Shown: piece by piece, positions 1 through 12,439 of the stretch
Layout of the letters: the number at the start of each line of letters is the position of its first letter
Numbering within the stretch: the stretch's first letter is position 1
Source: a virus
UHGV virus genome: UHGV-0045964
Direction: 5' to 3' (one strand)
Length of the DNA: 13,815 nt
Position numbers and translations under genes: made by a program
The notes under the pieces: model-generated
Told to the model about the DNA's origin: nothing
Seen by the model: only the letters and a program-made list of their open reading frames with translations
Databases searched by the model: none

Positions 1-35
1 TAAAGGGTAATATATAACAGAAGGTTTATATAGTT

Positions 36-107
36 AGAAGCAAGGTTGTGCTTCTAAAGGAAGTGGCTTGAGGGAGCCACTTATATGTTGGGGAGGCAAC
101 GCCTCCC
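36..107 (-). terminator. Cluster of three perfect 7-bp hairpins just 3' of the porin stop; putative porin terminator region
   Basis: Inverted repeats agaagca/tgcttct (36-42/49-55), agtggct/agccact (62-68/75-81) and gggaggc/gcctccc (91-97/101-107), each with a 3-6 nt loop. Only the middle hairpin is followed by a U-rich tract on the minus strand, so the terminator assignment is tentative. Confidence 0.3.
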
Positions 108-132
108 GCAACATATCTTTTTCGTAATCAGA

Positions 133-1215
133 TTAGAACTGATACACCAGACCTACAGCGACGATGTCGTCGGTATCAATACCAGCTGTTTTGGTAAACT
201 TACTATCGTCAATTAAGTTGATTTTGTAATCAACAAAAGTGGACATGTTTTTATTAAAGTAGTAAGTAGCACCGACATCGACATACTTGACTAAGTCTCG
301 GTCACCATGAACACCAAGGTCTTTACCTTTTGACTGAAGGTAAGCAACAGATGGACGCAGACCGAAGTCAAACTGATATTGTGCTACTGCTTCAAAGTTT
401 TGTGCTTTGTTTGCAATATGGTTATTACCAAAAACGGTCATATTCTGAGTTTCAGAATATGTGGTAGCCAGATAGATATTGTTCGCATCATATTTCAGGC
501 CTGCAGCCCATACTTCCGCATTTTTGCCGGAGGCATTGAATTTGCTCTTACCATAGGCGACCTGACCGTCAGTGCGATCTGATTTAGCATAGGTTGCACC
601 CACGCCGAATCCTTCATACTCATAAGTAGCGGAGAAACCGAAACCATCACCATTGGCTTCAGTTACGTCAGTGCGGTCATTTTTACCCTGATACTGAGCA
701 GCAAAGTTCAGGCCATCGACCAGACCAAAGAAGTCGTTGTTACGATAAGTTGCAACACCAGTAGTGCGACCAGTCATGAACACATCTGTTTGGGTCCAGG
801 TATCACCACCGAATTCTGGCAGAACGTCAGTCCACGCACCGATGTCGTATGCTACACCGTAGTTACGGCCGTAATCGATTGAGCCGTAATCACCAAATTT
901 CAGGCCTGCAAATGCAAGACGGGTTTTGTCTTTGGAAGAACCTTGAGATTCAGCGCGGTTGCCTTTGAATTCATATTCCCACTGACCGAAACCAGTCAGT
1001 TGATCGTTGATTTGGGTTTCACCTTTGAAGCCAAGACGGGCATAAGTAGTATCACCATCATCTGCATCATTAGAGGAGAAGTAGTGCTTAGCATTAACTT
1101 TCCCGTACAGATCCAGCTTGTTACTGTCTTTATTATAAATTTCAGCTGCCTGAGCAGACATCGCCATCAGTACTGATGCAGCTACAGCAGAAATTGCCAC
1201 TGTTAATTTTTTCAT
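133..1215 (-). CDS. nmpC: Prophage-borne OmpC/OmpF-family general porin (NmpC/Lc-like), intact 360-aa precursor
   Basis: Minus-strand ORF. Start taken at ATG 1215..1213 (signal peptide [23 protein letters not shown], then AEIYNKD) rather than the upstream in-frame Met of the ORF track. Porin hallmarks include the C-terminal ...VGLVYQF; stop TAA at 135..133. Position on the opposite strand directly upstream of the lysis genes matches the nmpC/lc moron slot of DLP12/PA-2-type phages. Confidence 0.9.
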
Positions 1216-1642
1216 CGTGAGCCCTTTTTTTGAACTATTATTAAAAAATGATGTCACTGCGCGATAAATATTCATCTAATCAATGTGATTATTTCAAGAT
1301 GTAAGTTTTGGTTTCTCGTTTGATTTGTGAAGTAGATCTCTATTTTTATCTGAACTTTTTTCTATCGAATCCTATTCATGGCTCTTGGCTGAATAAAAAT
1401 AAATCTATTAGCCAATTTATATTAATGGCTGTTATTTATAAGTGCTCTATAATTTGAAGGTTCAATTTAAATCGGCTAAAAATAACGCTGGAAATTATTT
1501 GTTGGTTATTTGTTGAGATTTGCTTATGTATTTGTAGTGGTGTTTTCAATACTCGGTAGCATTCTCGCAAATATCATTTAGTGGTTTACGTACGTAAAAA
1601 ATTGGTTATGCTGTTAAGAGTGGTTACTTCGTCACACAGCTT

Positions 1643-1672
1643 AAACCCGCCGTCGAGCGGGTTTTTCCATTT
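1643..1672 (+). terminator. Intrinsic terminator upstream of the lysis cassette (tR'-like)
   Basis: Hairpin aaacccgc / loop cgtcga / gcgggttt followed by TTTTTCCATTTTTT, about 120 bp upstream of the holin start. Confidence 0.5.
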
Positions 1673-1787
1673 TTTGAGTCTCGATATTAGCTGATAACCC
1701 AATACCTGAGTTATTCACTGACTCCGAGTCTGTTACGTTTCGTAGTATTCCCTCAATTTACACCCGCTTTGTCTGCGAGGTGGGGTT

Positions 1788-2003
1788 ATGAAATCCATGG
1801 ATAAGTTAACAACGGGTGTCGCCTATGGCACCTCAGCAGGTAGTGCCGGGTACTGGTTTTTACAGCTGCTAGATAAAGTCACGCCCTCACAGTGGGCGGC
1901 AATTGGAGTGCTGGGTAGCCTGGTATTTGGCCTGCTGACGTACCTGACAAACCTTTATTTCAAGATTAAAGAAGATAAGCGCAAGGCTGCGAGAGGTGAA
2001 TAA
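1788..2003 (+). CDS. essD: Class II holin, phage 21 S21-type pinholin (71 aa) with dual-start motif
   Basis: Translation [26 protein letters not shown]...[15 protein letters not shown] matches the S21 pinholin family. Met1-Lys2-Ser3-Met4 gives the antiholin/holin dual start; two TMDs and a basic C-terminus; RBS gaggtgggg upstream; stop overlaps the endolysin start (TAATG). Confidence 0.9.
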
Positions 2004-2500
2004 TGCCTCCATCATTACGAAAAGCCGTTGCTGCTGCTATTGGTGGCGGAGCAATTGCTATAGCATCAGTGTTAATTACTGGCCCAAGTGGTAACGATGG
2101 TCTGGAAGGTGTCAGCTACATACCATACAAAGATATTGTTGGTGTATGGACTGTATGTCACGGGCATACAGGAAAAGACATCATGCTCGGTAAAACGTAT
2201 ACCAAAGCAGAATGCAAAGCACTCTTGAATAAAGACCTTGCCACTGTCGCCAGACAAATTAACCCGTACATCAAAGTCGATATACCGGAAACAACGCGCG
2301 GCGCTCTTTACTCATTCGTTTACAACGTGGGTGCTGGCAATTTCAGAACATCGACGCTTCTTCGCAAAATAAACCAGGGCGATATCAAAGGCGCATGTGA
2401 TCAGCTACGTCGCTGGACATATGCTGGCGGTAAGCAATGGAAAGGTCTCATGACTCGTCGTGAGATTGAGCGTGAAATCTGTTTGTGGGGTCAGCAATGA
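2003..2500 (+). CDS. rrrD: SAR (signal-anchor-release) endolysin, phage 21 R21-type lysozyme (165 aa)
   Basis: N-terminal Gly/Ala-rich weakly hydrophobic SAR segment ([20 protein letters not shown]) followed by a T4-lysozyme-like catalytic region (E...D...T in [16 protein letters not shown]); near-identical to R21 by recognition. Stop TGA overlaps the Rz start (ATGA). Confidence 0.9.
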
Positions 2501-2958
2501 ACAGAGTAACCGCGATTATCTCCGCTCTGGTTATCTGCATCATCGTCTGCCTGTCATGGGCTGTTAATCATTACCGTGATAACGCCATTACCTACAAAGC
2601 CCAGCGCGACAAAAATGCCAGAGAACTGAAGCTGGCGAACGCGGCAATTACTGACATGCAGATGCGTCAGCGTGATGTTGCTGCGCTCGATGCAAAATAC
2701 ACGAAGGAGTTAGCTGATGCGAAAGCTGAAAATGATGCTCTGCGTGATGATGTTGCCGCTGGTCGTCGTCGGTTGCACATCAAAGCAGTCTGTCAGTCAG
2801 TGCGTGAAGCCACCACCGCCTCCGGCGTGGATAATGCAGCCTCCCCCCGACTGGCAGACACCGCTGAACGGGATTATTTCACCCTCAGAGAGAGGCTGAT
2901 CACTATGCAAAAACAACTGGAAGGAACCCAGAAGTATATTAATGAGCAGTGCAGATAG
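2497..2958 (+). CDS. Rz: Rz i-spanin (inner-membrane spanin subunit), lambda-type, 153 aa
   Basis: [29 protein letters not shown]... with N-terminal TMD and coiled-coil periplasmic domain; essentially lambda Rz by recognition. ATG 2497 preferred over GTG 2485 of the ORF track. Confidence 0.9.
2717..2899 (+). CDS. Rz1: Rz1 o-spanin (outer-membrane lipoprotein), nested in the +1 frame inside Rz
   Basis: 60-aa ORF wholly inside Rz in another frame; perfect SD aaggag 7 nt upstream; lipobox LVVVG|C; proline-rich mature part ([15 protein letters not shown]) as in lambda Rz1. Confidence 0.88.
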
Positions 2959-2989
2959 AGCTGCCCATATCGATGGGCAACTCATGCAA

Positions 2990-3283
2990 TTATTGTGAGC
3001 AATACACACGCGCTTCCAGCGGAGTATAAATGCCTAAAGTAATAAAACCGAGAAATCCATTTACGAATGTTTGCTGGGTTTCTGTTTTAACAACATTTTC
3101 TGCGCCGCCACAAATTTTGGCTGCATCAACAGTTTTCTCCTGTCCAATTCCCGAAACGAAGAAATGATGGGTGATGGTTTCCTTTGGTGTTACTGCTGTC
3201 GGTTTGTTTCCAACAGTAAACGTCTGTTGAGCACATCCTGTAATAAGCATTGCCAGAGCGGCAGAAAACAACATTTTTTTCAT
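2990..3283 (-). CDS. bor: Bor lipoprotein (serum-resistance / Iss-family outer-membrane lipoprotein), 97 aa
   Basis: Start taken at MKKMLFSAALAMLITG|CAQQ (lipobox) = ATG 3283..3281, not the longer ORF-track start at 3331; C-terminus ...EARVYCSQ; near-identical to lambda Bor by recognition. Confidence 0.9.
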   Translation of the reverse strand: MKKMLFSAALAMLITGCAQQTFTVGNKPTAVTPKETITHHFFVSGIGQEKTVDAAKICGGAENVVKTETQQTFVNGFLGFITLGIYTPLEARVYCSQ

Positions 3284-3464
3284 CTTATTATCCTGCATTG
3301 TTAAAAACGGCAGAATCCTATGTGACAACAATTAAACGATAGTTAAATGGATTGATGAAAATTAAAACTATATAGGTGGATGCTCAGCCTATTGGAGGAG
3401 GGGGGGGCACTCAGAATCCTGTGGAATGAAATAAACCGCTCTATCTGTCCATTACCCTTTTAGC

Positions 3465-3574
3465 TGCGCTGTATCGTCGCCGTATTCCCGCATTAACCAT
3501 GACCGTAGCCCGACGGGGAATTCCTTCTGCGTGAGTGTGCGGGAATAATCAAAAACGATGCACACCGGGTTTTA
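3465..3574. repeat. Conserved non-coding element, copy 1 (between bor and the ylcI-like gene); diverged copy at 5123..5233
   Basis: About 110 bp alignable to 5123..5233 with scattered substitutions; no ORF in either copy; contains a 10-bp inverted repeat tattcccgca (3483-3492) / tgcgggaata (3538-3547). Weaker similarity continues to about 3644. Confidence 0.7.
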
Positions 3575-3644
3575 CTGTGCTGACAGACGCAGGGTTACCC
3601 TCATAGTCGCTTTTCCGGTGCGATGGTGGAAGAAACCGGGATGT

Positions 3645-3839
3645 TCATCCATCATCACTTTGGATTGATGTATATGCTCTCTTTTCTGACGTTAGTCTCC
3701 GACGGCAGGCTTCAATGACCCAGGCTGAGAAATTCCCGGACCCTTTTTGCTCAAGAGCGATGTTAATTTGTTCAATCATTTGGTTAGGAAAGCGGATGTT
3801 GCGGGTTGTTGTTCTGCGGGTTCTGTTCTTTGTTGACAT
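3645..3839 (-). CDS. ylcI: Small YlcI-like (DUF3950) protein, 64 aa, possible ribbon-helix-helix DNA binder
   Basis: MSTKNRTRRTTTRNIRFPNQMIEQINIALEQKGSGNFSAWVIEACRRRL...; ATG at 3839..3837, stop at 3647..3645. Position just upstream of cos/Nu1 matches ylcI-nohD in DLP12. The RHH assignment is inferred from the basic N-terminus and Arc/MetJ-like pattern. Confidence 0.7.
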   Translation of the reverse strand: MSTKNRTRRTTTRNIRFPNQMIEQINIALEQKGSGNFSAWVIEACRRRLTSEKRAYTSIQSDDG

Positions 3840-4002
3840 GAGGTTGCCCCGTATTCAGTGTCGCTGATTTGTATTGTCTGAAGTTGTTTTTACGTTAAGT
3901 TGATGCAGATCAATTAATACGATACCTGCGTCATAATTGATTATTTGACGTGGTTTGATGGCGTAGATGCACGTTGTGACATGTAGATGATAATTATTAT
4001 CA

Positions 4003-4177
4003 TTTTGCGGGTCCTTTCCGGCGATCCGACAGGTTACGGGGCGGCGACCTCGCGGGTTTTCGCTATTTATGAAAATTTTCCGGCTTAAGGCGTTTCCGTT
4101 CTTCTTCGCCGTAACTTCATGTTTTTATTTAAAACACCCCCTAAAAAGAAAGGAAACGACAGGTGCTGAAAACGGGC
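4003..4177 (+). other. cos: cos site copy 1 (cosQ-proximal region, cosN, cosB sites R3-I1-R2), cut off by the scaffold gap before R1
   Basis: Lambda junction ...ccgacaggttacg|gggcggcgacct... with the 12-nt cohesive-end sequence GGGCGGCGACCT at 4039..4050; gpNu1 R-site motifs cgtttccgttct (R3) and inverted gaaaggaaacgacag (R2). Sequence stops at the N run 4178..4187. Confidence 0.85.
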
Positions 4178-4259
4178 NNNNNNNNNNTTAGTGCTGGCGA
4201 GCCTCGGTGGGCTGGTTTCCTGTGCGGCAAAGGTTCATTTCAAAGAGTAGGTACACGCT

Positions 4260-4757
4260 ATGAAATCATTAACCCTCTTCAATCAACCAATTCGTATCGG
4301 TGAAGATGGCATGATCTGCCTCACTGATATGTGGAAAGCCAGTGGTAAAAGTGAATCTGAATCGCCTTACCACTACCTGCGAAACAAGCAGACCAAAGAG
4401 TTCTTAGCCGAGCTGGAGAAAAACCACGAATCTGTGGTTTTTACTGAGCGCGGTGTACACGGTGGAACATATGGCGGGAAGTTTGTTGCTTACGATTATG
4501 CGGCTTGGTTAAACCCCGGGTTCAAGTACGCGGCCTATAAAGTCCTCGATGACTACTTCACCGGAGAACTTCAGCATCGCAACAGCTTAAGTGCGCAGCT
4601 CAACATGAAATGTCATGAGTTTGACCAGAAGAAAGACATGGCGAGCTTCTGCGGACAAGGGCTGGCAGCATGGCGCTATACGAAGCCAGTGTTGGTCGCT
4701 GAGATTAACTCCCTGGCTAACCAGCTGCAGATTACGATCCCCGGGCTTCCGGGATGA
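4260..4757 (+). CDS. KilA-N domain protein (165 aa), function unknown
   Basis: KilA-N/APSES-like signature ...VFTERGVHGGTYGGKFVAYDYAAWLNPGFKYAAYKVLDDYF...; no fused C-terminal Bro/ANT domain; stop overlaps the next ORF start (ATGA at 4754-4757). Confidence 0.75.
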   Translation: MKSLTLFNQPIRIGEDGMICLTDMWKASGKSESESPYHYLRNKQTKEFLAELEKNHESVVFTERGVHGGTYGGKFVAYDYAAWLNPGFKYAAYKVLDDYFTGELQHRNSLSAQLNMKCHEFDQKKDMASFCGQGLAAWRYTKPVLVAEINSLANQLQITIPGLPG

Positions 4758-5011
4758 GTGATCGTGTTATTGAATGCGCCTCCAGAGCGGGGCGCGACTT
4801 CTCAGAGTTCATGAAAGGCGAGAAGGGCATGATGGAAGCATTGGCCTCGGTGGATGAGTTTGGCGAGCAGCTGCGCCTCAACGGCTGTGTCAATCATCAC
4901 TTTGTTAGCTACATGATGCGGAACTCGATCATGCAGGCATTCATGGACATGGCAAAAGCCGAGAGGAAAGAAGAGCGCCGGCGTAAGCGAGCGGAAGCAA
5001 AAGCGAAGTAG
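4754..5011 (+). CDS. Hypothetical 85-aa protein, Met-rich with a strongly basic C-terminal tail, translationally coupled to the KilA-N gene
   Basis: ORF MSDRVIECASRAGRDFSEFMKGEKGMMEALASVDEFGEQLRLNGCVNHHFVSYMMRNSIMQAFMDMAKAERKEERRRKRAEAKAK; ATGA overlap with the upstream gene; a weak hairpin plus T-run follows (gggata...tatccc tttt, 5065-5090). Not recognised as any known family. Confidence 0.55.
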   Translation: MSDRVIECASRAGRDFSEFMKGEKGMMEALASVDEFGEQLRLNGCVNHHFVSYMMRNSIMQAFMDMAKAERKEERRRKRAEAKAK

Positions 5012-5122
5012 CCATTACAAAGCCTATCTACGGGTGGGCTTTGATAATGGCTTATACCCTACACGGGATAACTTAACTGATATCCCTTTTAAAGGATAAA
5101 GGTATTCAAGCCTGACACATCA

Positions 5123-5233
5123 TGCGCTGTATCGTCGCCGTATTCCCGTATTAACAGAGACCATAGCCCGACGGGGAACTCTTTCTGCGCGAGTGTGCGG
5201 GAATAATCAAAAACGATGCACACCGGGTTTTTA
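5123..5233. repeat. Conserved non-coding element, copy 2 (upstream of the second cos)
   Basis: Diverged copy of 3465..3574; inverted repeat retained as tattcccgta (5141-5150) / tgcgggaata (5196-5205), where the single arm change turns a G-C pair into a G-U wobble. Confidence 0.7.
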
Positions 5234-5332
5234 CCGCGTTTATGGTTCGCGGGTTTGTCCCTCATGCTCGCCAGTCCTGTGCGAGGGTGGAAGAAACCGG
5301 ATATTAATGCAAGTGATAAACATTCTCATTTT

Positions 5333-5533
5333 CTCGGGTCCTTTCCGGCGATCTGACAGGCTACGGGGCGGCGACCTCGCGGTTTTTCGCTATTTATGAA
5401 AATTTTCCGGTTTAAGGCGTTTCCGTTCTTCTTCGTCGTAACTTAATGTTTTTATTTAAAATACCCCCTGAAAAGAAAGGAAACGACAGGTGCTGAAAAC
5501 GGGCTTTTTGGCCTCTGTCGTTTCCTTTCTCTG
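5333..5533 (+). other. cos: cos site copy 2, complete (cosN, cosB with R3, I1-like AT-rich region, R2, R1)
   Basis: ...ctgacaggctacg|gggcggcgacct...; cosN 12-mer at 5366..5377; R-site motifs cgtttccgttct (about 5418-5430), gaaaggaaacgacag (about 5476-5490, inverted) and ctgtcgtttcctttctctg (5515-5533); Nu1 start follows at 5555. Confidence 0.88.
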
Positions 5534-5554
5534 TTTTTGGCCGTGGAATGAACA

Positions 5555-5726
5555 ATGGAAGTCAACAAAAAGCAGCTGGCTGACATTTTCGGCGCGAGTA
5601 TCCGTACCATTCAGAACTGGCAGGAGCAGGGAATGCCCGTTCTGCGGGGTGGTGGTAAGGGTAATGAGGTGCTTTATGATTCTGCCGCCGTCATAAAATG
5701 GTATGCCGAAAGGGATGCTGAAATTG
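5555..5726 (+). CDS. nu1: Terminase small subunit gpNu1, N-terminal piece (fragment 1 of 3; runs into the N gap)
   Basis: MEVNKKQLADIFGASIRTIQNWQEQGMPVLRGGGKGNEVLYDSAAVIKWYAERDAEI, the winged-HTH cosB-binding domain of lambda Nu1; ATG at 5555 as in lambda. Confidence 0.85.
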
Positions 5727-5736
5727 NNNNNNNNNN

Positions 5737-6231
5737 AAGTCAACAAAAAGCAGCTGGCTGACATTTTCGGTGCGAGTATCCGTACCATTCAGAACTGGCA
5801 GGAACAGGGAATGCCCGTTCTGCGAGGCGGTGGCAAGGGTAATGAGGTGCTTTATGACTCTGCCGCCGTTATAAAATGGTATGCCGAAAGGGATGCTGAA
5901 ATTGAGAACGAAAAGCTGCGCCGGGAGGTTGAAGAACTGCGGCAGGCCCGCGAGGCAGATCTCCAGCCAGGGACTATTGAGTACGAACGCCATCGACTTA
6001 CGCGTGCGCAGGCCGACGCACAGGAACTGAAGAATGCCAGAGACTCCGCTGAAGTGGTGGAAACCGCATTCTGTACTTTCGTGCTGTCGCGGATCGCAGG
6101 TGAAATTGCCAGTATTCTCGACGGGATCCCCCTGTCGGTGCAGCGGCGTTTTCCGGAACTGGAAAACCGACATGTTGATTTCCTGAAACGGGATATCATC
6201 AAAGCCATGAACAAAGCAGCCGCGCTGGATG
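5737..6231 (+). CDS. nu1: Terminase small subunit gpNu1, second allele fragment (residues about 3-166); overlaps fragment 1
   Basis: Restarts at ...aagtcaacaaaaag (codon 3) in frame 0. The 167-bp overlap with 5560-5726 differs at 7 positions, all synonymous third-base changes. Continues ...ENEKLRREVEELRQAREADLQPGTIEYERHRL... to the N run at 6232. Confidence 0.85.
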
Positions 6232-6241
6232 NNNNNNNNNN

Positions 6242-11536: not shown

Positions 11537-12439
11537 ACGGCATTATCGCCCGTCTGCAACAGGCTGCCAGCGATCCGATGGTGGACGGCATTCTGCTCGA
11601 TATGGACACGCCCGGCGGGATGGTGGCGGGGGCATTTGACTGCGCTGACATCATCGCCCGTGTGCGTGACATAAAACCGGTATGGGCGCTGGCCAACGAC
11701 ATGAACTGCAGTGCAGGTCAGCTGCTTGCCAGTGCCGCCTCCCGGCGTCTGGTCACGCAGACCGCCCGGACAGGCTCCATCGGCGTCATGATGGCTCACA
11801 GTAATTACGGTGCTGCGCTGGAGAAACAGGGCGTGGAAATCACGCTGATTTACAGCGGCAGCCATAAGGTGGATGGCAATCCCTACAGCCATCTTCCGGA
11901 TGACGTCCGGGAGACACTGCAGTCCCGGATGGACGCAACCCGCCAGATGTTTGCGCAGAAGGTGTCGGCATATACCGGCCTGTCCGTGCAGGCTGTGCTG
12001 GATACCGAGGCTGCAGTGTACAGCGGTCAGGAGGCCATTGATGCCGGACTGGCTGATGAACTTGTCAACAGCACCGATGCGATCACCGTTATGCGTGATG
12101 CACTGGATGCACGTAAATCCCGTCTCTCAGGAGGGCGAATGACCAAAGAGACTCAATCAACAACTGTTTCAGCCACTGCTTCGCAGGCTGACGTTACTGA
12201 CGTGGTGCCAGCGACGGAGGGCGAAAACGCCAGCGTGGCGCAGCCGGACGTGAACGCGCAGATCACCGCAGCGGTTGCGGCAGAAAACAGCCGCATTATG
12301 GGGATCCTCAACTGTGAGGAGGCTCACGGACGCGAAGAACAGGCGCGCGTTCTGGCAGAAACCCCCGGAATGACCGTGGAAACGGCCCGCCGCATTCTGG
12401 CTGCAGCACCACAGAGTGCACAGGCGCGCAGTGACACTG
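11537..12439 (+). CDS. C: gpC, main internal fragment (3 of 4), ClpP/SppA-like serine protease region
   Basis: Frame-1 piece NGIIARLQQAASDPMVDGILLDMDTPGGMVAGAFDCADIIARVRDIKPVWALANDMNCSAGQLLASAASRRLVTQTARTGSIGVMMAH...; lambda gpC by recognition; the in-frame Nu3 start lies inside it at 12139. Confidence 0.85.

Follow-up and report, generated by a model that had tools for sequence, protein, structure and literature searches.

A conserved non-coding unit that follows the lysis genes of lambda-like phages and may act as a structured RNA

Stem-loops on the 3' side of phage mRNAs, such as the sib/tI retroregulator of int in phage lambda and the RNase III sites of T7, set message stability either by blocking exonucleases or through RNase III. 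The put RNA of HK022 is a cis-acting, two-stem antitermination RNA that lies just downstream of early promoters and acts on RNA polymerase. Junctions between phage modules carry boundary 'linker' sequences, which are usually a few tens of bases long and give no structure signal. The moron concept and the boundary sequences of mosaic lambdoid genomes are credited in PMC4104026 to Juhala et al. (2000). Several small RNAs (sRNAs) are also known from lambdoid prophages: the anti-sRNAs AgvB and AsxR (Rfam families RF02702 and RF02703), which are 50-60 nt long, lie between Q/pR' and the lysis genes, end in a Rho-independent terminator and bind Hfq (PMC4104026); StxS, which is the pR'-tR' transcript (PMC7547250); the Pas sRNAs, which lie between Q and the lysis genes (bioRxiv 10.64898/2026.05.13.724894); and svsR, at the 3' end of cI (PMC12803456). 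Here we describe a non-coding unit of ~175 nt, present twice in a 13,815-nt stretch of viral DNA, UHGV-0045964 (hereafter the window), whose first and largest part is a ~109-nt rod-like hairpin that we call element E. The unit belongs to the lambda-like phage backbone, and we tentatively read it as a structured RNA that acts in cis, at the distal end of the lysis cassette.

The unit resembles sib/tI and the T7 RNase III sites in that a long imperfect hairpin follows a block of genes in a polycistronic phage transcript, where the RNA is untranslated. It differs in sharing no sequence similarity with them, in having a second module (a hairpin with a possible pseudoknot) and in following the lysis genes rather than int. 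Like AgvB/AsxR, StxS and Pas, it is non-coding, occupies one conserved late-region position in many E. coli prophages and occurs in several copies per genome. These RNAs, however, are 50-80 nt long, have their own promoter and intrinsic terminator and bind Hfq, whereas the unit lies after Rz, is ~175 nt long and has neither signal; the RF02702 and RF02703 covariance models gave no match to it. With boundary sequences it shares the form of a short conserved non-coding block with variable inserted genes around it and recombination joints inside it, but it is ~175 nt long, keeps its hairpins through changes of sequence and pairs better on one strand. As with put, a multi-stem RNA would act in cis within a lambdoid transcript; at the unit, however, the polymerase would already be Q-modified and at least 2 kb into the operon, and there is no similarity between the two.

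The three parts of the unit, E, a short variable hairpin and block 2, follow one another in a fixed order. The original prediction had reported a direct repeat of ~110 bp, and alignment and the repeat family D12 bear this out (3465-3573 against 5123-5231, 109 nt, 93% identity). Homology runs on past the end of that repeat to a second block (3598-3639 and 5259-5300; repeat family D16) and ends immediately after block 2. The features of the two copies are as follows, with their basis in brackets.

3465-3573, + strand: element E, copy 1, a rod-like hairpin (repeat D12, fold, pair counts; 139.7 bits with the covariance model of E)
3470-3477 (TGTATCGT) and 3555-3562 (ACGATGCA), + strand: outer stem of E, copy 1, 8 bp (fold)
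3483-3493 (TATTCCCGCAT) and 3537-3547 (GTGCGGGAATA), + strand: inner stem of E, copy 1, 11 bp (fold)
Within E, + strand: third helix, 5 bp, CGTAG / CTGCG in copy 1 and CGYAG / CUGCG in the family (fold)
Within E, copy 1, + strand: apical mini-hairpin CCC/GGG (fold)
3575-3592, + strand: small spacer hairpin, copy 1, CTGTG, 8-nt loop, CGCAG (downstream alignment)
3602-3641, + strand: block 2, copy 1 (repeat D16, alignment, pair counts)
3602-3610 (CATAGTCGC) and 3620-3628 (GCGATGGTG), + strand: stem S1 of block 2, copy 1 (alignment)
5123-5231, + strand: element E, copy 2, on another contig and prophage, with the same nested stems (133.8 bits with the covariance model of E)
5234-5252, + strand: small spacer hairpin, copy 2, CCGCG, 9-nt loop, CGCGG (alignment and fold)
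5263-5301, + strand: block 2, copy 2 (alignment, pair counts)
5263-5271 (CATGCTCGC) and 5281-5289 (GCGAGGGTG), + strand: stem S1 of block 2, copy 2 (alignment)

The 10-bp stem on which the original prediction had drawn, TATTCCCGCA (3483-3492) and TGCGGGAATA (3538-3547), is indeed 100% complementary and encloses 45 nt, and copy 2 differs in the arms by a single substitution, c to t at 5149, through which a U.G pair forms on the + strand. Taken alone, this stem is near chance: the window holds five inverted repeats of at least 10 nt within 70 nt, of which that of 3483-3547 is one, and its meaning therefore depends on homologues. In copy 1, E closes with the 3' tail CACACCGGGTTTT. The sequence of the spacer hairpin depends on the lineage (CCGCG/CGCGG, CACGT/ACGTG and others), and a short G+C-rich hairpin is usually still possible. 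The loop of block 2 in copy 1, TTTTCCGGT, holds a CCGG (3615-3618) that can pair with the CCGG at 3636-3639 past the A-rich linker GAAGAAA (3629-3635). This second pairing, S2, would together with S1 form a possible H-type pseudoknot; in copy 2 the loop CCTG (5276-5279) meets the downstream CCGG (5297-5300) with one U.C mismatch. Block 2 terminates in a near-invariant GGAAGAAAC(C/A)GG, a block end that can also be written GGAAGAAACCGG. A further pairing, of the E tail (CACCGGG) with the loop or the 3' end of block 2, appeared in minimum-free-energy folds and was rejected, as polymorphisms give it no support.

In phage lambda, E lies at ~46869-46976, between bor and lambdap78, and the whole unit ends at 47035; no feature is annotated in the lambda interval 46753-47041. 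VT2-Sakai and 933W-type Shiga toxin (Stx) phages carry E between bor and the small terminase gene, and DLP12 of K-12 carries it as well. BLAST located E in 432 phage records and at 11,723 places in 4578 of 5426 complete E. coli genomes (84%), with up to 11 per genome. Thirty-eight of 40 E. coli records sampled across the identity range have no annotation at E, and the other two say 'hypothetical protein'. Neither Rfam, the sampled annotations nor the searchable literature, which leaves out most subscription papers and the older lambda literature, yielded a prior description of the unit.

We collected 232 instances (70 distinct sequences) from IMG/VR, metagenome and reference loci. A census of 128 instances demonstrated that E invariably comes after Rz and points the same way as R and Rz, along the late operon. 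The order was R (+), Rz (+), then nothing, bor (-) or KilA-N (+), then E, then nothing, ylcI (-), ybcV (-), p79 (+) or an HNH gene (+), and finally nu1 or another small terminase gene; the commonest arrangement has E directly after Rz. In Sp10-type phages E starts 10 nt past the Rz stop codon. In Sp10 itself, where the unit occupies ~1946756-1946935 of NC_002695.2, a convergent minus-strand ylcI-like gene ends at its own terminator before block 2, so that only the + strand is expected to be transcribed across the unit there. Both the census and the downstream alignment place inserted genes on the outer sides of the unit, ahead of E or past block 2, but never between the two, and the spacing from E to block 2 is 40-60 nt in 229 of the 232 instances. 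Three unrelated small-terminase types (lambda nu1, 933W type and Sp10 type) co-occur with E. A dispersed repeat of the REP, ERIC or MITE kind was considered and rejected, as all copies lie at the same lambdoid prophage site or beside the phage-derived iss on plasmids; nor does the unit begin and end in inverted repeats.

When loci were picked only by a lambda-like Rz, E was found in 46 of 80. Those without it are Rac-type defective prophages, with trkG after Rz, or HK97-like phages that carry an HNH gene. The bor loci of Salmonella arizonae/diarizonae, Pectobacterium, Enterobacter, Buttiauxella and Photobacterium have no E, and a covariance model of E run on the Rz loci without E and on the other-genus loci detected no diverged copies, with only the window copies matched. 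Loci anchored on bor in other genera were rejected as divergent homologues: they lack E, and most matches look like lambda control DNA that contaminates unrelated assemblies. Such contigs with lambda bor (loci L127-L152 and others, many of ~3.5 kb) turn up under the names Kitasatospora, Cohnella, Flavobacterium, Pedobacter, Shewanella, Arcanobacterium ('plasmid') and others, and the element on them is of the lambda type. On ColV-type plasmids E persists as a decayed relic beside iss. In the relic on plasmid pEC6622-2 (L004 2490-2610) the inner stem contains one additional C and a G to A substitution, and an IS3 insertion has removed the 3' tail and block 2, a decay that would fit relaxed constraint outside a phage.

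Conservation is sharply confined to the unit. Mean pairwise identity is 42% in the 40 nt upstream, 88% in E, 55% in the spacer, 77% in block 2 and 35% in the 40 nt downstream. The original prediction allowed that a short conserved peptide might account for this, and that explanation failed: variable sites are spread evenly over the codon phases (19/18/20), variants differ by 1- and 2-nt indels that shift the frame, and there is no shared open reading frame (ORF). The statement that both copies lack ORFs is not strictly correct, as a 58-amino-acid ORF runs on the - strand of copy 2 (5089-5265), but that ORF has no sign of coding.

The nested stems of E are maintained across the 70 distinct variants, and 97.5% of cells are paired (37 distinct sequences). 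Two pairs carry compensatory changes: C-G to G-C in the lambda type, and C-G to U-A in another lineage, for which the C.A intermediate is present. The covariation score of E (0.075) lies above the shuffled value (0.057), with none of 500 shuffles as high, and above all slid controls; that of block 2 is 0.234 against 0.134 (again none of 500 as high), with slid partners reaching at most 0.087, although shuffle-based measures of this kind can be inflated by kinship and recombination among the sequences. Overall the covariation of E is modest and that of block 2 clearer. In block 2, pairs 13-31, 14-30 and 24-44 each occur as two or three standard pair types. The sequence of S1 changes by lineage in the same paired columns (GUCGC/GCGAU, CUCGC/GCGGG, GCCGC/GCGGU and UGCCAG/CUGGCA), with covariation at three pairs, and S2, which joins the loop UCCGG to CCGGA past the A-rich linker, has one covarying pair (G-C in 21, U-A in 11, G.U in 4). 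Pairing is also better on one strand, 96.6% of cells on the + strand against 86.2% on the - strand in E, and 78.8% against 60.2% in S1.

Conventional signals were not found within the conserved blocks. An intrinsic terminator scan of 3465-3643 and 5123-5301 on both strands returned no terminator-like site; the U run after E begins 8 nt past the base of the stem. The sole nearby match in a sigma-70 promoter scan (3580-3607) falls within the spacer, which is variable, and was seen in copy 1 but not in other lineages. Searches with cmscan against Rfam 15 (2900-5800 and 3440-3660, E-values up to 10) gave only chance-level matches, far under the gathering scores, and ARAGORN detected no tRNA or tmRNA.

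We tentatively favour the reading that the unit is a cis-acting structured RNA, because its orientation is fixed, it lies after Rz, the order of E, spacer and block 2 is unbroken, pairing is strand-specific and it has no transcription signals of its own. The unit would be transcribed within the Q-antiterminated late transcript from pR', after S-R-Rz, and would act in cis as a folded RNA, with morons (bor, KilA-N genes, ylcI, ybcV and HNH genes) inserted before or after it and never inside. Its likeliest role would be in message processing or stability, where it would define or protect the lysis-gene mRNA on the 3' side. The rod hairpin and pseudoknot may form a barrier to 3'-5' exonucleases, or the long stretch between Rz and the packaging genes, which is untranslated in that sense, may hold a site for a double-strand-specific nuclease; either route would set the fate of the lysis message independently of the sequence downstream. 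An RNase III site comprises about two turns of near-continuous double-stranded RNA and is cleaved in dependence on rnc; the helices available in E measure 8, 11 and 5 bp, with internal loops between them. A more specific proposal, which we regard as distinctly doubtful, is that the rod hairpin, the small hairpin and the A-rich-linker pseudoknot form a three-module RNA of ~175 nt, in lambda and in most E. coli, with a specific job of its own. Such an RNA would either be freed from the late transcript or work inside it, for example as a nuclease-resistant element setting the ratio of lysis to packaging expression, or as a stable RNA acting on a host or rival-phage factor in lytic growth.

The suggestion of a structured RNA in the original prediction thus gains from the kept stems, the two compensatory pairs and the better + strand pairing, and this support is moderate rather than decisive. 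A number of observations weigh against a functional RNA. Just two pairs covary in E, and 42 of 500 shuffles attain that number. The family is narrow (identities of at least 80%; phages of E. coli, Shigella and a few Salmonella), so shared ancestry and recombination could mimic part of the structure signal. Folding energy is ordinary: on the + strand the whole unit has z-scores of -0.4 and -1.1, and E by itself has -1.0 and -1.7. Wobble variants that pair on the + strand only do not significantly outnumber the A.C types (17 against 11). The S1 of lambda itself has two mismatches. S2 is mismatched in seven of 43 distinct sequences, one mismatched combination occurring in 23 instances, and minimum-free-energy folds favour other partners for the CCGG segments of block 2. 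Finally, 34 of the 80 lambda-like Rz loci have no E, which makes the unit dispensable for some relatives.

The relationship between the two copies in the window also required revision. The original prediction placed them in the two arms of one cos region, an arrangement that proved to be a scaffolding artefact. The window consists of 14 contig pieces joined by runs of ten N (at 4178-4187, 5727-5736, 6232-6241 and ten further places), with copy 1 on piece 1 (1-4177) and copy 2 on piece 2 (4188-5726). Compared with the complete E. coli MS 196-1 genome, piece 1 (2400-4177) matches 3,454,805-3,456,582 at 100% identity and piece 2 matches 3,153,035-3,154,573 at 99.9%. The pieces thus lie 300 kb apart, and the copies therefore represent equivalent sites in two lambdoid prophages, with one element copy per prophage, rather than a duplication flanking cos. 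The predicted distance of 0.1-0.5 kb to cosN holds for both (~465 nt for copy 1, ~132 nt for copy 2). The gene order on piece 1 is R, Rz (+), bor (-), E, ylcI (-) and cos; on piece 2 it is the KilA-N gene and an ORF of 85 amino acids (+), E, cos and nu1. The surrounding features are listed below.

2497-2958, + strand: Rz, last lysis gene of the late operon, prophage 1 (context)
2990-3286, - strand: bor/iss lipoprotein moron between Rz and element E, prophage 1 (context)
3645-3839, - strand: ylcI (DUF3950) moron, prophage 1, with its stop codon 3 nt past block 2 (context)
4178-4187, no strand: run of ten N, the contig junction between two prophages 300 kb apart in the complete genome
4260-5011, + strand: morons between Rz and element E, prophage 2, comprising a KilA-N/ORF11CD3 gene (4260-4757) and the 85-amino-acid ORF (4754-5011)

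Among adjacent pieces of the window, many carry alleles of the same lambda genes (nu1, A and downstream genes) at 93-97% identity; these are presumably collapsed or bubble contigs, to which several lambdoid prophages of a single strain contributed. As the window is thus a pseudo-scaffold of short contigs, tandem 'repeats' spaced by their length plus 10 are assembly artefacts. In the cosB/nu1 leader (5474-5530) there is an imperfect 26-nt inverted repeat with a 5-nt gap, which has weak, chance-level Rfam matches to miRNA families; we take it to be a known feature of the lambda left end and not a new one.

The main rival to a cis-acting RNA, possible though in our view unlikely, is that the unit is backbone DNA kept by descent, serving as a homology patch for swaps of morons and modules, with incidental hairpins and no RNA function. 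Recombinants can be seen within E, as the same 5' flank types are found with different 3' flank types and vice versa, the mismatched S2 combinations look like recombinants that arose by crossovers between lineages, and in one lineage a truncated HNH gene is fused to the spacer hairpin via a 15-nt microhomology. The two E copies in the window, at 93% identity, are about as alike as the cos (94%) and nu1 (96%) repeats next to them, and the folding z-scores are unremarkable. A junction of this kind, however, would leave unexplained why the spacer (55%) and flanks (35-42%) have diverged while E and block 2 are kept, why different S1 sequences (UGCCAG/CUGGCA and GUCGC/GCGAU) form a hairpin in the same columns, and why pairing is better on one strand. 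The HNH fusion can be seen in a few phages (L294 3935-4010 compared with L323 3935-3960), where the gene is cut after its HQRGYGS codons and joined to the spacer hairpin and block 2. The joint runs through a shared GCG(G/T)TTATGGTTCG, E is deleted, and the whole is a clear microhomology recombination joint.

It is improbable that the unit is a gene for a trans-acting non-coding RNA, or the source of a stable RNA cut from the late transcript, with targets in the host or a competing phage. Lambdoid prophage sRNAs at fixed positions offer a precedent (AgvB, AsxR and EcOnc, PMC4104026; StxS, PMC7547250; Pas, bioRxiv 10.64898/2026.05.13.724894), both the defective prophage DLP12 and 84% of E. coli genomes have kept the unit, and some stretches predicted to be single-stranded, such as AAUCAAAAACG and the GGAAGAAAC of block 2, are near-invariant. 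Yet the flanks are unrelated, which leaves no conserved upstream promoter, and no promoter or terminator match falls in the conserved blocks. A search for complementarity of at least 12 nt to the rest of lambda returned none, with only chance-level 11-mers. Nor does any peak lie on the unit among the Hfq-bound sites of O157 Sakai (Tree et al. 2014; Table S2 of PMC4104026, coordinates corrected), the nearest peaks, EcOnc11 and EcOnc12, being on the other strand. An overlap of these two with E had been considered and was rejected after a shift of +140 from NC_002695.1 to NC_002695.2, calibrated with AgvB, which places them at the 3' end of the ylcI-like gene (Sakai Sp10, L172 5945-6008, minus). 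There they lie in an A/U-rich stretch just before a canonical intrinsic terminator (CUGCUGUG...CACGGCAG and a U run), and they look like a 3' untranslated region Hfq site of that gene.

Slightly less probable still is a minus-strand role for the morons, in which the unit would be a promoter or 5' leader for bor, or a 3' end or terminator for ylcI or ybcV transcripts. In lambda, DLP12 and copy 1, E lies 110-180 nt upstream of the bor start and just past the stop of ybcV/p78 or ylcI, and copy 1 has a minus-strand hairpin, GCACA...UGUGC, followed by AUCGUUUUUGAUUAUU. Copy 2 and the commonest arrangement, Rz then E, have however no minus-strand gene to the left, bor of Salmonella arizonae, Pectobacterium, Enterobacter and others does without E, and the ylcI-like gene of Sp10 has its own terminator before block 2. 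Pairing is poorer on the minus strand and the terminator scan was negative there. A promoter or terminator for the flanking morons, as the original prediction had proposed, is likewise at odds with the finding that no consensus match overlaps the conserved blocks and that the neighbouring genes vary while the orientation of E is constant.

A signal at the level of DNA, whether for packaging (as with cosQ), for protein binding or for replication (as a single-stranded DNA hairpin), is more improbable again. Block 2 ends ~65 nt ahead of cosN in prophage 2, DNA hairpins tolerate G.T pairs too, and the GATGGTGG or GGTGGTGG of block 2 differs from Chi (GCTGGTGG) by one base. The related proposal of a packaging-termination signal is not supported, because the distance to cosN ranges from 0.13 to ~1.6 kb (~132 nt, ~465 nt and ~1.6 kb in three phages), unlike the fixed, close spacing of the cos signals (cosQ/cosN/cosB) to the nick, and because E accompanies three unrelated small-terminase types, whereas cos signals are specific to one. 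Half-sites that change together 45 nt apart are not predicted for a dimeric DNA-binding protein, and HK97-like phages with the same Rz and bor lack E. The near-Chi sequence forms the 3' arm of S1, as GATGGTGG at 3622-3629 in the window and as GGTGGTGG in VT2-type block 2, near the right end of the packaged genome.

Lastly, a small protein encoded across the unit is scarcely credible: besides the minus-strand ORF of copy 2 there are only a weak match to phrog_6954 and coding sequences annotated in AU6Stx1 (gp52, L373 696-941, 81 amino acids, + strand, labelled 'Rz-like spanin', covering the whole unit in one lineage only) and in a few other records, which in the case of AU6Stx1 and phrog_6954 are probably spurious gene calls over a non-coding block, since there is no codon periodicity, 129 of the 232 instances have no + strand ORF, the ORFs of the others differ in frame, start and end, and there is no Pfam match.

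Here we have characterized a unit of three parts that sits at a fixed place after the lysis genes of lambda-like phages. Few genomes have been studied as closely as that of lambda, yet its interval that holds the unit is without annotation. What lends moderate interest to this conserved and probably structured non-coding element is its occurrence in lambda and in the majority of E. coli genomes. In practice the unit can be used to mark where the lysis module ends, and it accounts for some spurious 'hypothetical protein' and 'Rz-like spanin' calls. Were it only a recombination junction, it would still be a clear example of moron shuffling around a fixed backbone. If it is a functional RNA, it would add a point of post-transcriptional control to the late operon, between the lysis and packaging genes, that is common to the Shiga-toxin phages.

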